This document shows, piece after piece, positions 3,219 to 37,975 of a DNA stretch of 37,975 nucleotides (position 1 is the first letter of the stretch; each line of letters opens with the position of its first letter). The notes below the pieces were generated by a model. The model was not told the DNA's origin and ran no database searches. It saw nothing but the letters and a program-made list of their open reading frames with translations. Origin of the DNA: Clostridia bacterium (GTDB lineage Bacteria > Bacillota > Clostridia > Oscillospirales > CAG-272); assembly GCA_017450885.1 (NCBI GenBank), contig JAFSSR010000023.1, positions 1-37,975 on the forward strand, in the 5' to 3' direction. Position numbers and translations under genes: made by a program.

Positions 3219-4790
3219 ATGAACGGATTTCTCATTCCCATCTGCATCGCCGCTGGCGCGGCGGTGGTACTTATCATCTTCCTCTGCCGCATCTACAGGG
3301 TCGCCGACATCGACAAGGCCCTGATCATCACCGGCGGCAAGGAGCCCAAGATCAAGGTTTCGGGCGGATCGTTCGTCATTCCGATCTTCCGCAAGGCGCA
3401 GTACTTCGATCTCTGCATGCTGACCGTTACCGCAGATCGCGATGAGGTCAAGACCAAGACCTCGGTGCCCATAGTCATCGACTGGACGGCACAGATCAGA
3501 CCCGACACCGAGAACATGGACAACCTCAAAAAAGCGATCATCTCCTTCAAGGAGCGCGGACAGAACGGCATCATCAACGACGTCCGTCTGACCCTCACCG
3601 GCGCGGTGCGCGACATAGTCGCCTCCATGACCCCGGAAGAGGTGCTACGCGACAAGGTGGTGTTCGCCGACAACGTAAAGAAGATAGTCGCCGACGAGAT
3701 GGTCAACATGGGCATGGAGCTTGTCTCCCTGAACATTCAGGACATCACCGACAACAACAGGTACTACGACAACATCGCCGCCCTCGATATGGAGGACAAG
3801 CGCCGCGAGGCGGAGAACAAGAAATCGGTCGTCGACGAGGCGGTCCGCACCCAGAAGGCGGAGTCCGAAAAGGTGGCTTCGCAGAACGAGCTGGCTTCCG
3901 AGCTCGCCGTCGCCGAAAAGCGCAGGGACAACAACCTCAAGATCGCGGGCTTCAAGGCGGAGACCGACAAGGCTGACGCCGACGCCGCGATCGCCGGCGA
4001 ACTGCAGATGACCATCCGTCAGCAGGAGGTCACCGAGCAGCAGGGTCGCATCAACGTCATCAAGCAGGAGCAGGCAAACCTCGCGGCTCTCAAGGAGAAG
4101 GAGGTCATAGCCACCCGCGCCCAGGCTGAAAAGCAGAAGAACCAGATCGAGGCGGAGGCTCAGGCGAACGTTCGCAAGATCACCGCGGACGCTTCCGTAG
4201 AGGTCGCGTCCAAGGAGGCGAACGCCATCAAGATCACCGCCGAGGCTCAGGCTGAAAAGACCCGCAAGGAGGGCACCGCGGTCGCCGACGTGACCAAGCA
4301 GAAGGGTCTCGCGGAGGCTGAAGTCATCCGCCAGAAAGGTCTCGCGGAGGCGGAGGTCGAGAAGCAGAAGCTGATGGCTCAGGCGGAAGGCGAGCAGGCT
4401 CTCGCGGAAGCACGCGCTTCCAACGACAAGGTCAACTTCGAGATCGAAAAGATCAAGATCGAAAACGAGGCCAAGATCACCATCGCCACCAAGACCGCCG
4501 AGATCATGGCAAACATCGGTCAGAACGCCGAGTTCGTCAACATCGGCGGAGGCGCCACCGGCGCCGGAGCGACCGGCAACGTCCTGCTGGACACCCTCGC
4601 CGGGATCCCCGGTCTGATGAAGACCCTCAACGCCGAAAATCAGGCGCTCAACGGCAAGTCCTTCAACGACGAGCTCCGCAATCTTGTCGCCAGCCTCGCA
4701 GAGCCGGTAAAGGGCGTGCTGTCAAACACCACCAATACCACAGTCAACGAGGCGCCCGCGCAGGTCTGCGAAGCGCCGGCCGCAGAGTAA
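3219..4790 (+). CDS. flotillin / SPFH (band-7) domain membrane-microdomain protein with a long Ala/Glu/Lys-rich coiled-coil
   Basis: N-terminal TM helix, then an SPFH domain (IITGGKEPKIKVSGGSFVIPIFRKAQYFDL...) and about 250 aa of EA-rich heptad repeats, as in FloT/YuaG-type flotillins. RBS AAAGGAG. Confidence 0.85.
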   Translation: MNGFLIPICIAAGAAVVLIIFLCRIYRVADIDKALIITGGKEPKIKVSGGSFVIPIFRKAQYFDLCMLTVTADRDEVKTKTSVPIVIDWTAQIRPDTENMDNLKKAIISFKERGQNGIINDVRLTLTGAVRDIVASMTPEEVLRDKVVFADNVKKIVADEMVNMGMELVSLNIQDITDNNRYYDNIAALDMEDKRREAENKKSVVDEAVRTQKAESEKVASQNELASELAVAEKRRDNNLKIAGFKAETDKADADAAIAGELQMTIRQQEVTEQQGRINVIKQEQANLAALKEKEVIATRAQAEKQKNQIEAEAQANVRKITADASVEVASKEANAIKITAEAQAEKTRKEGTAVADVTKQKGLAEAEVIRQKGLAEAEVEKQKLMAQAEGEQALAEARASNDKVNFEIEKIKIENEAKITIATKTAEIMANIGQNAEFVNIGGGATGAGATGNVLLDTLAGIPGLMKTLNAENQALNGKSFNDELRNLVASLAEPVKGVLSNTTNTTVNEAPAQVCEAPAAE

Positions 4791-4798
4791 TTACCCAA

Positions 4799-4836
4799 GG
4801 CGGGAGTGAGCTTTGCCCACTCCCGCCGTCTTTATT
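4799..4836 (+). terminator. rho-independent terminator of the flotillin gene
   Basis: Stem GGCGGGAGTG(4799-4808)/CACTCCCGCC(4818-4827), followed by GTCTTTATT. Confidence 0.75.
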
Positions 4837-5000
4837 GTCGTCGCACCCAAACGGCGCTTCAACCGGTAGGGCTGGGTTTTAACCCCGCCGTCTTCAATGT
4901 CGTCCCGCCCAAACGCTGTCATTGCGAGGAGCGAAGCGACGCGGCAATCCGTTTTCCCGCCTTCGTTATCGTCGCATCCGAACGGCGTTCGACCGTCGCC
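4822..5000. repeat. three diverged tandem copies (period ~62-72 bp) of a unit CCCGCC(G)TCTTyaaTGTCGTCgCAyCCrAACGgcG-TTCrAcc
   Basis: Copies start at 4822, 4884 and 4956. Copy 2 carries the CAAACGCTGTCATTGCGAGGA variant. Confidence 0.6.
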
Positions 5001-5190
5001 TTCCCCATCGGGGGACCCGTTCCCCACAGGTCTCGGCGAGCTCGATCTGCCGGGGACCCCTAGGGGCGGTGTCGCCGAAGGCGACGGATGAGGAGCTCGC
5101 GGAGCGTGAAAACGAAATCGGTTGCTGATTTATCGTTCAGGGGCACGGATTGCCACAGCCCCTTTGGGGCTTCGCAATGACAGCGTTTGA
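4908..5190. repeat. MITE-like segment bounded by imperfect inverted repeats containing CAAACGCTGTCATTGCGA (4910-4927 forward, 5172-5189 reverse) plus an inner GGCAATCCGT inverted pair
   Basis: Direct reading: ...CCCAAACGCTGTCATTGCGAGGAGCGAAGCGACGCGGCAATCCGTT... pairs with ...CACGGATTGCCACAGCCCCTTTGGGGCTTCGCAATGACAGCGTTTGAGCG. Confidence 0.5.
5071..5085. repeat. GTCGCC-GAA-GGCGAC hairpin (member of a recurring 6-bp-stem/3-nt-loop family; flank GGTG...GG)
   Basis: Further copies lie at 5206-5220 (loop TTC), 5376-5390 (TTC), 5510-5524 (TGC) and 37779-37793 (TGC). The stem is invariant and the loop varies. Confidence 0.7.
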
Positions 5191-5255
5191 GCGTGGAAAT
5201 GATGTGTCGCCTTCGGCGACGCTATCGAAAAGCTCCTTCCCCCGCGGCGCAGCCG

Positions 5256-5297
5256 TGGGGAGGGGGAGCTCCCGGCGGAGCCGGGTGAGGGGAGGGG
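5256..5297. repeat. left G-rich arm: TGGGGAGGGGGAG - hairpin CCCGGCGGAGCCGGG - TGAGGGGAGGGG; inverted partner at 5498-5540
   Basis: The 12-mer TGAGGGGAGGGG (5286-5297) is exactly reverse-complementary to CCCCTCCCCTCA (5498-5509). TGGGGAGGGGGA pairs with CCCCCTCCCCCA (5529-5540) with a 1-nt difference. Both arms carry a hairpin at the equivalent position. Confidence 0.65.
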
Positions 5298-5330
5298 TAA
5301 GGCTCGCTCCGCTCGCAATGAAGACTTAAG

Positions 5331-5369
5331 AATGAATAATGAAGAATGAATAATGAATAATGAATAATT
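5331..5369. repeat. heptamer micro-tandem repeat (GAATAAT)n, about 5.5 units, immediately 5' of a GGTGTCGCCTTCGGCGACGG hairpin
   Basis: Direct reading: GAAT GAATAAT GAAGAAT GAATAAT GAATAAT GAATAAT. Confidence 0.8.
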
Positions 5370-5397
5370 TCGGTGTCGCCTTCGGCGACGGTCTTAA

Positions 5398-5490
5398 CGA
5401 GATTTCGCCTGCGGCGAAACGAGATTTTTGCTTTCGCAAAAGCGAGATTTGCGCCTTGTGGCGCAAGCGAGATTCGCGGCGAAGCCGCGA
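5398..5490. repeat. array of four units, each an invariant CGAGATT linker followed by a different perfect hairpin (stems TTTCGCC/GGCGAAA, TTTTGC/GCAAAA, TTGCGCC/GGCGCAA, TCGCGGC/GCCGCGA)
   Basis: Linkers are at 5398-5404, 5420-5426, 5443-5449 and 5468-5474. Each intervening 15-18 nt segment is a self-complementary stem-loop whose sequence differs between units. Confidence 0.75.
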
Positions 5491-5497
5491 GCGGACG

Positions 5498-5540
5498 CCC
5501 CTCCCCTCAGTCGCCTGCGGCGACAGATCCCCCTCCCCCA
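5498..5540. repeat. right C-rich arm (reverse-complement copy of the 5256-5297 module) with embedded GTCGCC-TGC-GGCGAC hairpin
   Basis: See the left arm at 5256-5297. Together the arms bracket the 5298-5497 core holding the heptamer repeats and the CGAGATT hairpin array. Confidence 0.65.
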
Positions 5541-5621
5541 AGGGGAAAGCGGCGAGCCTAACGGCTGATGCTAATGACTTTCAACTTATACCCTGCGCCT
5601 CTCCATATCTGAAACTCGATA

Positions 5622-32005: not shown

Positions 32006-32034
32006 TTGACATCGTCTGCGCTATGGGGTATAAT
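32006..32034 (+). promoter_or_regulatory. consensus sigma-A promoter TTGACA-17-TATAAT for the lipoprotein gene
   Basis: TTGACA at 32006-32011, TATAAT at 32029-32034. Confidence 0.7.
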
Positions 32035-32070
32035 GATCGTATCATATTTATTTCAAAGGGAACGGCAAAA

Positions 32071-33540
32071 ATGAAATTCAAACGCGCGGCCGCCCTCTTC
32101 GCGGCGGCAATACTTCTTTTCTCGGGATGCGGAACACGCGGGAACGGCGGCGGCGACACCTCTGAGCCGGAGACCACCGCTCGCGATATGAGCAAATACG
32201 ACCCGCGCGAGGCGGTCTCCTTAAAAAGCGAGCATTTTTCCGTCACCAACGACAAGCTCGCCTATTTCTTCTACAAGGACTACTACGACGCCGTCAACCT
32301 CTATTATGAGAGCTATTTCGCGCCTTACGGGCTCGATCCGACGAAGGATCTGAAGGAGCAGAATTACGATAACACCGCCACCTGGTTCGACTATTTTATG
32401 GGCGTCACGGTGCAGAACGTATTGAATTATCTCCGCTTGGCGGAGGCGGCTATCGACCGCGGGGCGGGTCTTGACGACGCGGACCGCGCAAAGGCGGCAG
32501 CGGAGCTGGACGATATAAAAGCCGCCGCGGAGGAGTTCGGGATGTCCCTTCAGGAGTTCCTCGACAGCCGTTTCGGCGAGGGGCTTACCGAGGAGTCTTT
32601 GCGCGAATGTCTCGAGCTGTACTATTTAAGCGACAAGCAGTTCAGCTATATTTCGGACAGCGTGGCGGCTGACGACGCTTCTCTCGAAGCGTACTATGAG
32701 GAAAACAAAAAGGACTTCCTTTTTGTCGATTTCCGCAAGGTCGAGGTCCGCGCCGATCAGACCGAGTACGCGAACGAGGAAGCGCGCAAGGCGGGGTTTG
32801 CCGAGGCTGAAAGGCAGTCGAGGTATATCGAAGCGTCCGCCGGTATCGACGAGTACGTCGAGCGCGGCATAGCGTATTATAAGTCGATAAACGATACTCT
32901 CGAGGTCCCGCTTTCCGACGAAGAGATATATACAAAAGTGACCAATATAGTGGTCCAGTACGGCTTCAACGATACGACCGCCTTCGGAAAATGGGCGTTT
33001 GCCGACGGCAGGCGCGCGGGCGATATTGTCATGCTCGACAACGGCTCCGGCATATACACGGTCTATTATCTCGTCACGCCCCCCTACCGCGCCGAAAACA
33101 AGACGGTGAACTATCGTTATTCCTGCTTTACGGATGAAGAAAAAGCGAAAGCCGCGCTCGCCGAATTCGAGTCGGGAGAACGGAGCGGGGAACGTTTCGC
33201 CGACCTGGTATCCGGCGCGGACGGCGCGCAGGGGAACGGAAGTCTGCGGGAAAACGTCGATCTGGGCGAGACCGCCCCTGCGGTCGAGGTCTGGCTGTTT
33301 GACAAGGAACGCCGGCAGGGCGACTGCGGACTCGCGGAGCAGGACGGGTATTACTATCTCCTTTACTACGAGGGCGACGGCAAGATCTCCTGGAAGCTTT
33401 CCGCCGAAAACGCGATAAGAAGCGGCGTCATCAATACCGAGCTCGCAAAGTACGCGGCGAAATATAAGATAGAGTCAGATAAGGACAACATATACCTTAT
33501 CCCCGGAGAAAACGCCTATACCAGAGCGGTGAAAGAGTGA
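32071..33540 (+). CDS. secreted lipoprotein of unknown function (signal peptide + lipobox LLFSGC)
   Basis: The internal ATG 32071 is preferred (MKFKRAAALFAAAILLFSGCG...). The mature part is hydrophilic and Asp/Glu/Tyr-rich with no recognisable catalytic motifs. Confidence 0.7.
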   Translation: MKFKRAAALFAAAILLFSGCGTRGNGGGDTSEPETTARDMSKYDPREAVSLKSEHFSVTNDKLAYFFYKDYYDAVNLYYESYFAPYGLDPTKDLKEQNYDNTATWFDYFMGVTVQNVLNYLRLAEAAIDRGAGLDDADRAKAAAELDDIKAAAEEFGMSLQEFLDSRFGEGLTEESLRECLELYYLSDKQFSYISDSVAADDASLEAYYEENKKDFLFVDFRKVEVRADQTEYANEEARKAGFAEAERQSRYIEASAGIDEYVERGIAYYKSINDTLEVPLSDEEIYTKVTNIVVQYGFNDTTAFGKWAFADGRRAGDIVMLDNGSGIYTVYYLVTPPYRAENKTVNYRYSCFTDEEKAKAALAEFESGERSGERFADLVSGADGAQGNGSLRENVDLGETAPAVEVWLFDKERRQGDCGLAEQDGYYYLLYYEGDGKISWKLSAENAIRSGVINTELAKYAAKYKIESDKDNIYLIPGENAYTRAVKE

Positions 33541-33584: not shown

Positions 33585-33631
33585 AAAAAAAGGATCTGCG
33601 GGAATTCTTGAATTCCCGCAGATCCTTTTTC
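33585..33631. terminator. bidirectional rho-independent terminator (A-run, 16-bp palindromic stem, T-run)
   Basis: AAAAAAA GGATCTGCGGGAATTC TT GAATTCCCGCAGATCC TTTTT. Confidence 0.85.
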
Positions 33632-33694: not shown

Positions 33695-35287
33695 TCAATT
33701 ACTCTTTTCCGGCAGTCCCGCGTACCCGGTCTTGCGTATTATCTCCTGACCGGAGGGAGAGAGGATAAAGTCGATCATCCTGCCGACGTTTTTGTTCGGG
33801 TCGTCCTTTCGGGTGATAAGGCAGAGGTCGACCGTCAGGGGATAGCTGCCGTTTTCTATGTTTTCGACGGTGGGGTACACCCCGTCCACGGCGAGCAGCT
33901 TGACGCCCTTCTCCTGCGAAAGCCCTTCTACGAAATAGCGGAAGGAATAACCGATCGCTCCGCGCTCGTTGGCGTACTGCGCCACCTCGCGGATAACGCC
34001 TCCCATTCCGCCGACCATCTCATAAGTCATCGGCTGCTTGAGCTCGACTTTGCCCATAAAATACTGCATCATAGTCTGGGAGCCGGAGTTCTCCGGCCGC
34101 TGGAAGGCGACTATCGGCGCCTTGTTCCCGCCGAGTTCCTTCCAGTTTTCGATATCTCCGTGATAGATCGCGCGGAGCTGGTCGGCTGTCAGCGAGTCGA
34201 TCGGATTGTCCTCCTCGACAAAGAAGACGAACGCCTCTTTGCCTATCGGCGTTATATTGAGCTGGACCTTTTTGTCTAACGCGTCCTGAAGCTGGCTTTT
34301 CGACGGGCGCGCCCCGAAGAAGAGATCGACGTCGCAGTTTATCAGGCGCTCAAAGCCGACGACCGTGTTAGTAAACGTGACTATCTTGCCGTTATGCGCA
34401 CAATAATCCCCGTAGTTATTTAAATCGTCCTTGAAAGCCTCTTCTATTTTACCTATGTCCTTGTATACCGCTTTGGCGAACGCGGAGTAGAGCGGATAGC
34501 ACGCCTCCGCGCCGTCCATTTTGGGCATCTCGAACTCTTTTTCGATAAGCAGGGACGGAGCGGTGTCCGGCTCGACCAGCTTTGAGTTGTCCGCATACAC
34601 GGTGTAGTCGGTGAAATCGGTGCTGGAGTATCCGTGCATATAGTCGAAGCCGTGCCCGGCGTATCTGACCTCCGGCCGCTGAAGATACATCGGGATGCTG
34701 ACCGCGACCGACGCGGCGATGAGCAGGAGGGGTAGGATGGTATGCCTTATTCTCGGCTTACCCTTTTCCGCATGGATGGCGCAGACGATAAACCCCGCGC
34801 CGTAAGCGATCATCGCCATAAAGTATTGGGCCCAGGCGTCTCCGTCAAAAACATATGCCGCTATAATTGAAAAGCTCGTGGGCAGCGTCGAGTAATAAAA
34901 GATCTGCATCATATCGCCCGAGGTGCTCCCGGAGAAAATGACCATCAGTACGGCGAATAAGACAGAAAGCGCGGCCGCGATCCAGAGATTGATCATCGCC
35001 GCGGCGTTCATATCCGAGCAGGTCTTCTTGCTGATTATATGGTAAAAGATAAACAGAAATATCGGTAGGATAATGAAATCGTACGCGCCGAGCATTATCG
35101 GTAAGCCGATAAGACTTCCGATGAACGGAACGGCGTAATATAACAGAATTCTGCCGATATTATGCGCGACAGTCCCGAGAGGCCCGCTGTCGCCCGCCAT
35201 CTTCCTCTTTTTCTTTTTCGGTTCGGGAGTTTCCTCGTTCAGCTTTTCCGGTCTGATATATGACCGGAAGTCGCGTCTTTCTTCCAT
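33695..35287 (-). CDS. polytopic membrane protein with C-terminal PstS-like (PBP_like_2) phosphate/anion-binding domain
   Basis: ATG 35287 is preferred because a perfect RBS AAGGAGG lies 6 nt upstream. A Lys-rich N-tail is followed by about 8 TM helices, then a domain with ENSGSQ and AIGYSFRYF motifs resembling PstS. Confidence 0.7.
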   Translation of the reverse strand: MEERRDFRSYIRPEKLNEETPEPKKKKRKMAGDSGPLGTVAHNIGRILLYYAVPFIGSLIGLPIMLGAYDFIILPIFLFIFYHIISKKTCSDMNAAAMINLWIAAALSVLFAVLMVIFSGSTSGDMMQIFYYSTLPTSFSIIAAYVFDGDAWAQYFMAMIAYGAGFIVCAIHAEKGKPRIRHTILPLLLIAASVAVSIPMYLQRPEVRYAGHGFDYMHGYSSTDFTDYTVYADNSKLVEPDTAPSLLIEKEFEMPKMDGAEACYPLYSAFAKAVYKDIGKIEEAFKDDLNNYGDYCAHNGKIVTFTNTVVGFERLINCDVDLFFGARPSKSQLQDALDKKVQLNITPIGKEAFVFFVEEDNPIDSLTADQLRAIYHGDIENWKELGGNKAPIVAFQRPENSGSQTMMQYFMGKVELKQPMTYEMVGGMGGVIREVAQYANERGAIGYSFRYFVEGLSQEKGVKLLAVDGVYPTVENIENGSYPLTVDLCLITRKDDPNKNVGRMIDFILSPSGQEIIRKTGYAGLPEKSN

Positions 35288-35347
35288 GGTCCGCCTCCTT
35301 TTGGGAAAATGTTCGCGGGAATAATATACCACAATTATAGCAAAAAG

Positions 35348-36211: not shown

Positions 36212-37585
36212 ATGAAAAAACTGATATGCTTATTCATCGCTTTACTGATGATTGCCGGACTGTGCGCCTGCAGCGCGGCGAAAAGCGAGTCGTCAGTAGA
36301 CGCTGACCCGGCGGAAAAGCCCGCCTCCCTCGAGCCGACCGACATAAAAGGCTCCGGCGCGGACGGGGAAGAAGCCGAGCCGAGCGCCGCAAAGGATATG
36401 TTTGCTTCGAAGGCGGAAGATATCGCTCCCGAAGGCGGGGCGAAGAGCGCGGAACGCGACGACGGCGGATACGCGGTGATCGACGATCCGGTCGTCCCGA
36501 GCTCTCCCGATATCGCCGCGGACTTCGGCGGAGAGGACGGAGGCGTCCCGGGCGACGAGCCGCCAGCGGACACGACTCCCATCGAGGCGGGGACCCTTAC
36601 CGCCGGCGAGTGGAAGGACAACGACAACTACGATTTCTGGCGTAAGGTGCTTGCGCGCGAAGAATGGGCGGGTCTCGCAAGGCTCTGGAAGATGGACGTG
36701 ACCAAGCGCTTCGCGGTGACGGTATCGGACGGTCAGAACACCGCGAAGAACGCCGCGGTAGAATTGCTCGACGCCGAAGGGAACGTGATATCCCGCGCCG
36801 TGACCGACTCCTACGGCAAGGCTTATCTGTATTACGATATCGACTCGGCGGGGAAGGTCCCGGCGGCGGTATCGGTCGGCGGCGCGCAGCATGAGATCAC
36901 CGCGGATCAGCTCGCGGCGGGAGGCGCGACCGTCTCCGGCGCGGGCGAGCGCTATACCAAGCTCGACCTTATGTTCACCACCGATACGACCGGCTCCATG
37001 ACCGACGAGCTCGAATACCTGAAGAAGGAGATGGGCAGCGTCATTGAGCGTGTCGCCGGCGAAAACGACGGACTTGACATACGCCTGTCGGTCAACTTCT
37101 ACCGCGACGAAGGCGATGAGTACGTCGTGCGCAGCTTCGCCTTCAGCGGCGATATAGAAGAGGTCATCCGTCAGCTCGATCAGCAGTTCAGCGACGGCGG
37201 CGGCGACTACCCCGAGGCGGTCCACACCGCGCTCGATGATTCTGTAAACGGTCACGACTGGCGCGACGACGCGGTCAAGCTGCTCTTCCTCACCCTCGAC
37301 GCTCCCGGACACAGCGACGCGGCGGGCGTGCCTGAAAGCGTGCGCGCGTCTGTCGTCGCCGCGGCGGCGAAGGGCATCCGCATAATCCCCGTGGCGGCGA
37401 GCGGCGTCGATACCGAGACGGAATTCATGCTCCGCGCCATGGCGTGCGCCACCGGCGGGACCTACATCTTCCTCACCGATCATTCCGGCGTGGGCGAGAG
37501 CCACCTTGAGCCTACCATCGGCGATTACAACGTGAAAAAGCTGAACGATCTGCTTGTCAAGGTCATAAGCGAGTATTGCAAGTAA
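36212..37585 (+). CDS. secreted/lipoprotein with von Willebrand factor type A (vWA) domain (MIDAS DxTxS variant DTTGS)
   Basis: Signal peptide with a Cys-containing lipobox-like LMIAGLCAC, and an acidic low-complexity linker. The vWA core reads LDLMFTTDTTGSMTDELEYLK...IRIIPVAASG. Confidence 0.75.
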   Translation: MKKLICLFIALLMIAGLCACSAAKSESSVDADPAEKPASLEPTDIKGSGADGEEAEPSAAKDMFASKAEDIAPEGGAKSAERDDGGYAVIDDPVVPSSPDIAADFGGEDGGVPGDEPPADTTPIEAGTLTAGEWKDNDNYDFWRKVLAREEWAGLARLWKMDVTKRFAVTVSDGQNTAKNAAVELLDAEGNVISRAVTDSYGKAYLYYDIDSAGKVPAAVSVGGAQHEITADQLAAGGATVSGAGERYTKLDLMFTTDTTGSMTDELEYLKKEMGSVIERVAGENDGLDIRLSVNFYRDEGDEYVVRSFAFSGDIEEVIRQLDQQFSDGGGDYPEAVHTALDDSVNGHDWRDDAVKLLFLTLDAPGHSDAAGVPESVRASVVAAAAKGIRIIPVAASGVDTETEFMLRAMACATGGTYIFLTDHSGVGESHLEPTIGDYNVKKLNDLLVKVISEYCK

Positions 37586-37604
37586 GCCGCGGAGTGTCGG
37601 CGGA

Positions 37605-37630
37605 GAAGTTCAAAGGACGAAGTTCAAAGA
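37605..37630. repeat. direct repeat GAAGTTCAAAG x2 (period 15)
   Basis: The two copies lie at 37605-37615 and 37620-37630. Confidence 0.6.
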
Positions 37631-37716
37631 CGTGTCGCCAGTCGCCGGCGTGGCCGGACCAAAATATCCGCAGTATGCTCGGAGCGTACGTGTCGCTTGT
37701 ATGCACGCTCCGCCGC

Positions 37717-37793
37717 GCGACGCGGCAATCCGTTCCGAAATAATTAGGAATTAGGAATGAGGAATGAGGAATTGCGGTGTCGCCTGCGGCGAC
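37717..37793. repeat. module set shared with the 4791-5621 cluster: GCGACGCGGCAATCCGTT (37717-37734), heptamer tandem ATTAGGA/ATGAGGA x4 (37743-37770), and a GGTGTCGCC-TGC-GGCGACGAA hairpin (37779-37793)
   Basis: The order (heptamer repeats then GGTGTCGCCNNNGGCGACG hairpin) matches 5331-5392. GCGACGCGGCAATCCGTT matches 4932-4953. Confidence 0.7.
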
Positions 37794-37833
37794 GAATAAT
37801 TCGGAAAAGTAAGGCGCTGTAACTCCGTTTCCG

Positions 37834-37975
37834 CACCCAAACGCTGTCATTGCGAGGACCGGCGGGGCGCCGGAGCCGAAACGTGTATATCGACTCGTGC
37901 GAACACAAACGCCCGGTATGATATTCGAAGCGCCTTATTAACAACAAGCACCCAAACGCTGTCATTGCGAGGAGT
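37834..37975. repeat. two direct copies of CACCCAAACGCTGTCATTGCGAGGA (37834-37858, 37949-37974; 115-bp spacing), same motif as 4908-4930 and reverse-complement at 5166-5189; cluster continues past window end
   Basis: Exact 25/25 identity between the two copies. The window is truncated inside the second copy. Confidence 0.75.

Follow-up and report, generated by a model that had tools for sequence, protein, structure and literature searches.

Introduction

Repetitive extragenic palindromes (REPs) are short palindromes that carry a conserved 5' head (GTAG/GTGG) and can stand as inverted doublets (REPINs) forming long imperfect hairpins. Many copies are non-autonomous. The repeats bracket a small associated gene for a REP-associated tyrosine transposase (RAYT) of the Y1 HUH type, which seems to keep to one locus per species (PMC3116915; PMC3337134; PMC5581495). 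Here, we describe two repeat clusters, 4791-5621 (cluster 1) and 37586-37975 (cluster 2), in a stretch of DNA of 37,975 bp, hereafter the window, which is an entire contig of a ruminant-gut Clostridia metagenome-assembled genome (MAG). Their units are members of a widespread family of mobile repeats built around a module of about 40 nt, and the two clusters are probably decayed, fast-changing mosaics of such short, non-coding, hairpin-forming repeats, served by a nuclease.

The modules share with the REP/REPIN-RAYT system the short extragenic palindrome with its conserved head, the inverted doublets, the many non-autonomous copies and the small repeat-flanked gene. In contrast, the head is GTCA(T) in all module copies, the associated gene codes for a GIY-YIG nuclease of ~95 aa, and the module has two nested stems, the inner one being free to vary. 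Moreover, the same module sequence occurs across phyla and in phage contigs, whereas REPs are lineage-specific. Bacterial interspersed mosaic elements (BIMEs) of E. coli and the rhizobium-specific intergenic mosaic elements (RIMEs) and Sm-repeats of rhizobia are intergenic mosaics of a few palindromic units and linkers, varying in order and orientation. The clusters described here resemble them in architecture only, with extragenic units and linkers in variable order past the 3' ends of genes; the units are other ones (not E. coli REPs), and heptamer arrays are part of the mosaic.

Bacterial miniature inverted-repeat transposable elements (MITEs), such as Correia, RUP, Nezha, and ERIC, are ORF-less units of 100-300 bp with inverted ends, present in many intergenic copies and with filled and empty sites (PMC3184786). 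The repeats studied here have these properties too. They differ in that no DDE transposase partner was found, that solo half-units move as well, and that the conserved part is a structured internal module and not the extreme termini. Period-7 intergenic arrays of 3-12 units, often directly 5' of start codons, have been published as the cyanobacterial short tandemly repeated repetitive (STRR) sequences and as the TAACTGA repeats of Beggiatoaceae, Cyanobacteria, and Bacteroidetes; their spread across phyla is patchy and has no known mechanism (PMC4679880). The arrays found near modules are alike in all these respects. However, their unit sequences differ from the published ones, they are coupled to hairpin modules, and they expand or contract between near-identical strains. 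Finally, a 2006 survey of the GIY-YIG superfamily grouped stand-alone prokaryotic proteins with Slx1, made no mention of repeats, and merely asked whether further members might be "molecular parasites" (PMC1564403). The genes bracketed by modules code for minimal GIY-YIG domains, like these stand-alone Slx1-like proteins (UPF0213/COG2827), which that survey regarded as uncharacterised. The literature searched yielded no account of the module or of any pairing between GIY-YIG genes and repeats.

A Structured Core Module Spread Across Phyla

The core module, ~40 nt long, reads GTCATTGCGA-variable hairpin-GCAATCC. The module has a GTC head and a C(C) tail. Between the two lie the outer stem (ATTGC/GCAAT), a small internal loop that is conserved as GA on one side and as G-N-R on the other, and an inner hairpin of free sequence whose pairing is kept. 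When genomes were scanned with the shared 18-mer, 44 loci were found across very different phyla, most of them showing GTCATTGCGA-insert-GCAATC. The architecture was found in Clostridia, their phages, Proteobacteria, Bacteroidota, Chloroflexota, the candidate phyla radiation (CPR), and others. Among all module loci examined, 91 distinct inserts were counted; nearly all belong to a short GCGAAGCGAA type, to a GGAG-x-CGAC type, in which tandem G.A pairs close a small stem, or are perfect hairpins of arbitrary sequence.

Both stems of the module covary. In an alignment of 27 sequences, in which the outer stem was fixed by the search pattern, all six inner-stem pairs have changes on both sides, and compensatory cells number 54, versus 18.8 in shuffles (0/500 shuffles reach 54; slid controls lie far lower). 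The outer stem was examined by a search that made no demand of complementarity, and the types recovered were ATTGC/GCAAT (30), ATCGC/GCGAT (4), ATTCC/GGAAT (2), and ATTCT/AGAAT (1); at one orthologous site (n=1), a compensatory swap from ATTCT/AGAAT to ATTGC/GCAAT was seen. Module copies with Watson-Crick inner stems also fold well as DNA (z ~-3.3).

Strong covariation in both stems would be expected of RNA elements selected by host or phage (3' untranslated region stabilisers, attenuators, processing or protein-binding sites) and spread by recombination, whose hairpins and heptamer arrays would act as RNA. So would the location of copies, which stand in 3' intergenic regions, just 5' of start codons and between structural genes of phages. 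We consider this explanation decidedly unlikely. When set against co-directional genes, 51 copies run antisense and 28 sense, and inverted pairs account for most copies, so that there is no consistent transcript strand. Rfam 15 gave no match at gathering score in the window, none even at E<=10 in 37500-37975, and weak chance-level matches only in cluster 1. Neither an intrinsic terminator (G+C-rich hairpin, then T tract) nor a promoter consensus was detected in 37400-37975. Presence/absence and rearrangement between 99.6%-identical strains, described below, also argue against RNA elements, as does the chemistry of the loops: both C(GNA)G triloops and tandem G.A pairs are features typically found in stable hairpins of single-stranded DNA, as in the d(GCGAAGC) type.

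Some other assignments were dropped. A CRISPR array was rejected on account of irregular spacing and mixed orientations, and integron attC sites because cassettes are lacking and no GTTRRRY/RYYYAAC pair stands at the unit ends. The GA/GNR internal loop was also considered as a k-turn, an idea that was abandoned, the strands not matching the k-turn consensus. Elsewhere in the window, a perfect 21-nt inverted repeat, AAAAAGGATCTGCGGGAATTC/GAATTCCCGCAGATCCTTTTT, lies at 33587-33630 between the convergent genes 32023-33540 (+) and 33695-35332 (-). It has no modules and looks like an ordinary bidirectional terminator; hence, normal terminators exist in the source genome.

Two Clusters Built From the Same Units

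Clusters 1 and 2 are the sole two long intergenic regions of the contig. The genes located 5' of them code for an SPFH/Band 7 protein and a VWA protein, respectively, the latter identical to MBQ7160336.1. The initial annotation, made on the sequence of cluster 2, had presented it as a second modular cluster sharing units with 4791-5621. This was borne out: every motif that it listed was found where it had been placed and far above chance, and repeat comparison recovered the shared units. Thus, AAACGCTGTCATTGCGA and GTGTCGCCNNNGGCGACG each have four copies in the window (0.01 and 0.00 expected), all in clusters 1 and 2, and the 17-mer GCGACGCGGCAATCCGT has two exact copies. The two clusters have at least five unit types in common, with order and number differing. 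The same annotation had seen structural rather than sequence conservation between them. This applies to the inner hairpin of the core module, which keeps pairing while the letters change. In contrast, the difference between the heptamers of the two clusters had been inflated by a register shift: in register, the heptamer and hairpin units are 80% identical over 56 nt (family D12), so that they are diverged copies and not mere structural analogues.

Cluster 2 comprises the following features, together with the gene preceding it:

36212-37585, + strand: VWA-domain lipoprotein gene (ORF; Pfam VWA and VWA_4); cluster 2 starts directly past its stop codon
37605-37615 and 37619-37629, + strand: two copies of GAAGTTCAAAG, a contracted period-7 array TTCAAAG GACGAAG TTCAAAG (37605-37629)
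37632-37662, + strand: GTGTCGCC and a decayed module remnant CCGGC-GTG-GCCGG ACC (strain comparison)
37681-37711, + strand: hairpin GGAGCGT...ACGCTCC with a 7-bp stem and a 17-nt loop, found with few substitutions in sister strain L235
37712-37734, + strand: hairpin GCCGCG-CGA-CGCGGC overlapping the module 3' half GCGACGCGGCAATCCGTT, without a matching 5' half
37742-37772, + strand: period-7 tandem array AATTAGG/AATGAGG (Tandem Repeats Finder, period 7, 4.6 copies)
37771-37800, + strand: head-like sequence ATTGCGG, then hairpin GTCGCC-TGC-GGCGAC (sequence, DNA fold)
37777-37794, + strand: hairpin GTGTCGCC-TGC-GGCGACG
37833-37873, + strand: leader GCACCCAAACGCT, module 5' half GTCATTGCGAGGA and hairpin CCGGCG-GGG-CGCCGG; 3' half missing
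37948-37975, + strand: leader and module 5' half ...GTCATTGCGAGGAGT, cut by the contig end

The GCGACGCGGCAATCCGTT copy at 37717-37734 is identical to 4936-4953; the covariance model finds no complete module there. The segment 37771-37800 resembles the 5' strand and inner hairpin of a module without the closing strand; it is 92% identical to 5366-5390 and folds as DNA at -6.5 kcal/mol (z -1.9), and another contig (L074) carries a module with a GTCGCC/GGCGAC inner hairpin. The two copies of GCACCCAAACGCTGTCATTGCGAGGA, at 37833-37858 and 37948-37973, lie 115 bp apart (family D11). A spurious 95-aa ORF spans the cluster at 37563-37850 (-), ORF callers reading through the repeats.

Complete modules were found by a covariance-model scan of the window at 4914-4952 (+) and 5145-5185 (-) only, both in cluster 1, whose features are:

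4799-4984, + strand: left part, with hairpin GGCGGGAGTG...CACTCCCGCC, three leader units and a complete module (repeat comparison, D9)
5069-5086, 5204-5221 and 5373-5390, + strand (within 5069-5390): three GTGTCGCC-NNN-GGCGACG hairpins
5145-5193, - strand: complete module with inner hairpin AGCCCC-AAA-GGGGCT (repeat comparison, I15; covariance model, 54.6 bits)
5301-5325, - strand: short module
5317-5368: period-7 array beginning directly at the head of the short module 5301-5325 (-)
5396-5494, + strand: four CGAGATT and hairpin units, stems all different
5498-5538, + strand: unit CCCCTCCCCTCAGTCGCCTGCGGCGACAGATCCCCCTCCCC

The leader units, GTCTTYAWTGTCGTC..CCCAAACG, are at 4828-4853, 4890-4915, and 4960-4984. 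The module at 4914-4952 (+) scores 53.8 bits and forms a heads-outward inverted pair with that at 5145-5193 (-), whose DNA fold reaches -9.1 kcal/mol (z -3.3). The stems of the CGAGATT units are TTCGCC/GGCGAA, TTTTGC/GCAAAA, TGCGCC/GGCGCA, and CGCGGC/GCCGCG; a similar run of short variable hairpins is seen at ~3900-3990 of phage contig L078. The CCTCAGTCGCCTGCGGCGACAG unit recurs in L074, L083, and L090, as well as in cluster 2 of L235.

Turnover Between Near-Identical Strains

The sister strain is represented by L235, a 39,445-bp ENA contig whose vWA protein falls in the same 90% protein cluster and whose vWA gene is 99.6% identical to that of the window. Cluster 1 (831 bp) differs between the two by five substitutions only, from which it follows that repeat activity is not continuous. 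At cluster 2, large indels and replacements show turnover, as do the filled and empty sites described in the next section. The GAAGTTCAAAG pair is the contracted form of an array that has six heptamer units in L235 (TTCAAAG/ATCAAAG/TTAAAAG). At the equivalent of 37632-37662, L235 and a further sister contig, L236, have an extra GTCCTCGTTGTCGCCGCGCCAAAACGCTGTCATTGCGAGGAGCGCC, that is, a leader and module 5' half missing from cluster 2 of the window. At the position of 37833-37873, L235 carries a complete module, GTCATTGCGAGGAGTACCGAAGGTACGACGCGGCAATCC. The 90 nt past 37858 are replaced there by ~330 nt, in which a complete module is accompanied by a leader unit resembling 4822-4890 and by a CCCCTCCCCTCAGTCGCCTGCGGCGACAGCTCCCC unit resembling 5498-5538. 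In the remainder of cluster 2, only scattered substitutions are seen. The segment CGAACACAAACGCCCGG (37875-37925) resembles the reverse complement of CGGGTGCGTTTTGTT, found at the corresponding place of L235, a likeness that hints at an inversion between inverted repeats within the cluster.

The truncation of cluster 2, which had been ascribed to the window edge, is real, and the edge is the end of the contig itself, falling inside a repeat copy. Extending the contig, as had been suggested, was possible to a small extent by means of L235: the last copy (37948-37975) runs on as GTCATTGCGAGGAGTACCGAAGGTACGACGCGGCAATC, ~23 nt being gained before L235 stops in the same module copy. A Joint Genome Institute (JGI) metagenome scan with a 23-mer matched only unrelated soil Alphaproteobacteria-like contigs. 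A third assembly stops in the first module of the cluster, and three further ones stop ~28 nt from cluster 1. Contig ends inside modules in several assemblies indicate that the units are dispersed repeats; since identical copies are spread through the genome, modules break short-read assemblies.

A contig that ends in a repeat could also be chimeric or collapsed at its end. That cluster 2 is such an assembly artefact is hardly credible, given that an independent assembly reproduces most of it, that cluster 1, internal to the contig, is recovered with 5 substitutions, and that the same modules are present in many genomes.

A more distant homologue of the vWA gene (58% identity, L055) has no GTCAT modules downstream; its locus is not syntenic, and this lack therefore says little. 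An 88-bp tandem duplication, including a terminator-like hairpin, lies 3' of that homologue (4365-4560).

Arrangement and Insertion Sites

Modules occur as heads-outward inverted pairs, as in MITEs or REPINs, or as solo copies. Among neighbouring modules, the heads-outward order (+-) was counted 38 times, versus 8 for the opposite one (-+), with a median spacer of 48 nt in the former. A crude ORF call placed 160 modules between genes and 37 within ORFs. When IMG/VR was scanned with the Oscillospiraceae-type module, 58 loci were found, in which modules are located between portal, scaffold, and capsid genes. They also follow many other genes, and the link to membrane or surface protein genes drawn by the initial annotation is thus unlikely to be meaningful.

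Presence/absence polymorphism was seen for pairs and for solo copies. In L108, a 137-bp module pair occupies the loop of a bidirectional terminator hairpin; in the related contig L106, the same loop is empty and intact. This insertion is possibly flanked by an imperfect 8-bp duplication, CCGCAAGG/CCACAAGG. A solo 49-nt module placed directly past a stop codon is present in L101 and absent from L095.

These data invite comparison with classical MITEs moved by a DDE-type transposase, the modules being, or adjoining, terminal inverted repeats, each insertion leaving a short target duplication, and the GIY-YIG genes being mere frequent passengers or neighbours. Indeed, Faecousia and a Clostridiales MAG (W1P1.011) contain complete MITE-like pairs of 170-280 bp with extra outer inverted repeats, AAATTGTTGTTTA...TAAACAACAATTT; one filled/empty pair fits an 8-bp duplication, and Clostridial copies have no nuclease gene nearby. 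Nevertheless, we regard this explanation as unlikely. No transposase-like family recurs near modules in ~0.86 Mb of loci. When module neighbourhoods were searched for recurrent genes, the first 47 loci yielded nothing except spurious ORFs and the 58 phage-type loci only structural genes. In addition, conservation resides in the internal hairpin module, with outermost sequences that vary by lineage, and solo modules come and go too. Finally, the sole gene that is repeatedly bounded by modules is the GIY-YIG gene.

Other observations concern local variants of the modules. At an orthologous phage site, L064 and L079 have the same flanks around either a compact module or a far larger insert in the inner-hairpin position. 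The contig with the larger insert also has an extra GTCATCCTGAGGAGCGAAGCGACGTGAGGATCC-type module, and the comparison shows that different outer-stem types can coexist in one genome. At the end of a Faecousia MAG contig (L020, 1-110), three tandem 33-nt copies of the module 5' part, GAAAATACGCTGTCATTGCGAACCAGCGCGCAC, are another kind of local module amplification. In L075 (1407-2744), the N-terminus of a phage capsid-like ORF is translated from a module (MSLRTSAHAGVAIRS...).

Heptamer Arrays Coupled to Modules

In 859 kb of loci, 40 period-7 arrays were counted, versus 0-20 for each of periods 5, 6, and 8-11. More than half of them (23/40) lie within 200 bp of a module head, a zone that covers 8.8% of bases; some of the loci are redundant phage contigs, and the count therefore overstates the number of independent cases. 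The conserved order noted initially for the two clusters, heptamers then hairpin or module, recurs with other heptamers in unrelated Clostridial and phage contigs, and phage contig L105 (996-1019) has the same heptamers as cluster 2. When compared with the 7-nt head GTCATTG, heptamer units give a mean of 4.5/7 matches, versus 3.9 for shuffled ones (P about 0.002-0.016). At the sequence level, this resemblance is a lead rather than a result. That the arrays might arise as side products when the 7-nt head is cleaved and repaired again and again is a speculation.

GIY-YIG Nuclease Genes Bracketed by Cognate Modules

Outside the Clostridia, genes for Slx1-like GIY-YIG proteins are tightly associated with cognate modules in many lineages. 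In a gammaproteobacterial locus, a 97-aa GIY-YIG ORF lies between modules. In the loci of five homologues (P0196, P0162, and proteins of Nitrospinales, Legionella, and Tisiphia), the gene stands between two modules, one ending 8-25 nt 5' of the ATG and the other placed directly past the stop codon. Tight bracketing by cognate GTCAT-hairpin-ATC modules was observed in 9/9 distinct non-Clostridial loci checked individually. Loci with a module on both sides of the gene are:

L006, L048, L051, L056, L059 and L060/L061: module before the ATG and after the stop codon

Among the IMG/VR GIY-YIG loci, a module is found at most 200 nt upstream in 20/32 and downstream in 15/32, the background being 9 modules per 51 kb. 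Translated protein ends carry the same signature: of the 16 N-terminal extensions seen in the best 120 homologues, 14-15 are translated module, as are 3-4 of the 4 C-terminal tails, with peptides such as HCEE..DEAIQ, MTKQSS, and WIAS..PRNDE. In cultured bacteria, three distant clades have different modules of the same design: GTCATTCTGAG...AGAATC in Planktothrix, GTCATCCCGAGG...GGGATC in Spirosoma, and GTCATCCTCGGGCTTGACCCGAGGATCC in Sinorhizobium. The last may itself be one of the rhizobial repeats mentioned in the Introduction.

The bracketed proteins are bare GIY-YIG domains (PF01541) of 89-101 aa with invariant Y, Y, G, R, H, E, and N columns. A homing endonuclease of the I-TevI/Seg type was rejected, as the bare domain has no DNA-binding extension and the TIGR01453 match is far below cut-off. 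P0196 and P0162 each have one conserved neighbourhood in many samples, which makes them more like a resident RAYT than like a hopping insertion sequence (IS). A tblastn search of plasmids for the nuclease gave no Firmicutes. On plasmid p1 of Planktothrix agardhii (L120, 18.4-19.5 kb), a GIY-YIG gene and repeats lie between an MmeI-type restriction-modification gene and the DISARM gene drmA, that is, in a defence island.

These loci also bear on whether a RAYT could serve the modules, as it serves the REP/REPIN populations of Pseudomonas and Enterobacteria. The architecture is alike, with a short palindrome carrying a conserved 5' head, inverted doublets, extragenic location, and BIME-like mosaics (PMC3116915; PMC3337134). 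A RAYT is nonetheless very improbable. Module heads read GTCA instead of GTAG/GTGG; the loci examined, in which the source organism is sampled by this contig, show no recurrent RAYT-like family close to modules; and in every lineage checked, the gene bracketed by modules is a GIY-YIG nuclease.

A Possible Mechanism for Module Spread

The reading that we favor, that of nuclease-served mobile repeats decaying into mosaics, can be put as a series of steps. Modules insert into intergenic DNA and, at one site resolved here, into a terminator hairpin, whose loop they occupy. Together with period-7 arrays and further small hairpin units, they accumulate into BIME-like mosaics. The nuclease may recognise an extruded hairpin or cruciform and nick it near the head. 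By analogy with what is thought of RAYT at REPINs, this nick could start module copying or gene conversion. The Clostridial copies would then be non-autonomous, either served in trans by a nuclease encoded elsewhere or relics.

Several points weigh against this reading. First, the window has no GIY-YIG ORF, and neither a hidden Markov model (HMM) nor a motif search found a GIY-YIG gene in ~0.6 Mb of Clostridial and phage DNA carrying the same module subtype; a search of IMG/VR with a combined module and GIY DNA pattern gave 79 chance matches and no nuclease. The nuclease partner in the source lineage is thus one that we infer. Second, a nuclease domain of ~95 aa alone cannot account for integration, and the gene could be homing into pre-existing repeats instead of moving them; the closest solved structure, the uncharacterised UPF0213 protein 1ZG2, is a weak match. 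Third, a target duplication is seen at one site (L108), where it is imperfect, and is not definable at other sites. Fourth, by the covariance model, cluster 2 consists of half-modules only and, as a whole, folds no better than shuffles (z -1.2); the near-identity of cluster 1 in L235 speaks against continuous activity. Finally, the canonical GGAGCGAAGCGACG variant does not come out as stable with nearest-neighbour DNA parameters (z +1.0). Such standard parameters give no credit for GNA triloops or sheared G.A pairs.

A more specific proposal can be made tentatively, and we think it somewhat less than evenly probable: the clusters would be non-autonomous members of an undescribed cross-phylum partnership between minimal Slx1-like GIY-YIG nucleases and cognate hairpins, a second counterpart of RAYT-REPIN with a different mechanism. 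Modules would be recognised as extruded DNA hairpins and would insert into other hairpin loops, and the heptamers would be scars of staggered cleavage and repair at the 7-nt head. In architecture and probable mode of action, the family stands nearest to REP/REPIN-RAYT and to BIME-type mosaics, from which head sequence and enzyme class separate it. We class its members as REP/MITE-like mobile hairpin repeats, and the chance is substantial that the partnership behind the modules is a new system.

Consequences for Genomes and Annotation

For the source species, the repeats have direct consequences. They end this contig, fragment other assemblies of the species, generate spurious ORFs, and give strains of otherwise 99.6% identity sharply different versions of the cluster 2 locus. 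Spurious ORFs of the "LRFARND / RLRGND" type are very common in bacterial annotations, and a true partnership between nuclease and hairpin would explain them. If the nuclease drives the repeats, it would represent a new enzyme class for REP-like elements, would provide a function for the large "UPF0213/GIY-YIG nuclease family", and would account for many junk ORFs in annotations. It would also offer a simple test system, made up of one 95-aa protein and one 40-nt hairpin. Finally, the heptamer repeats of cyanobacteria and sulfur bacteria have long gone unexplained, and the coupling of arrays and modules provides a lead on them.

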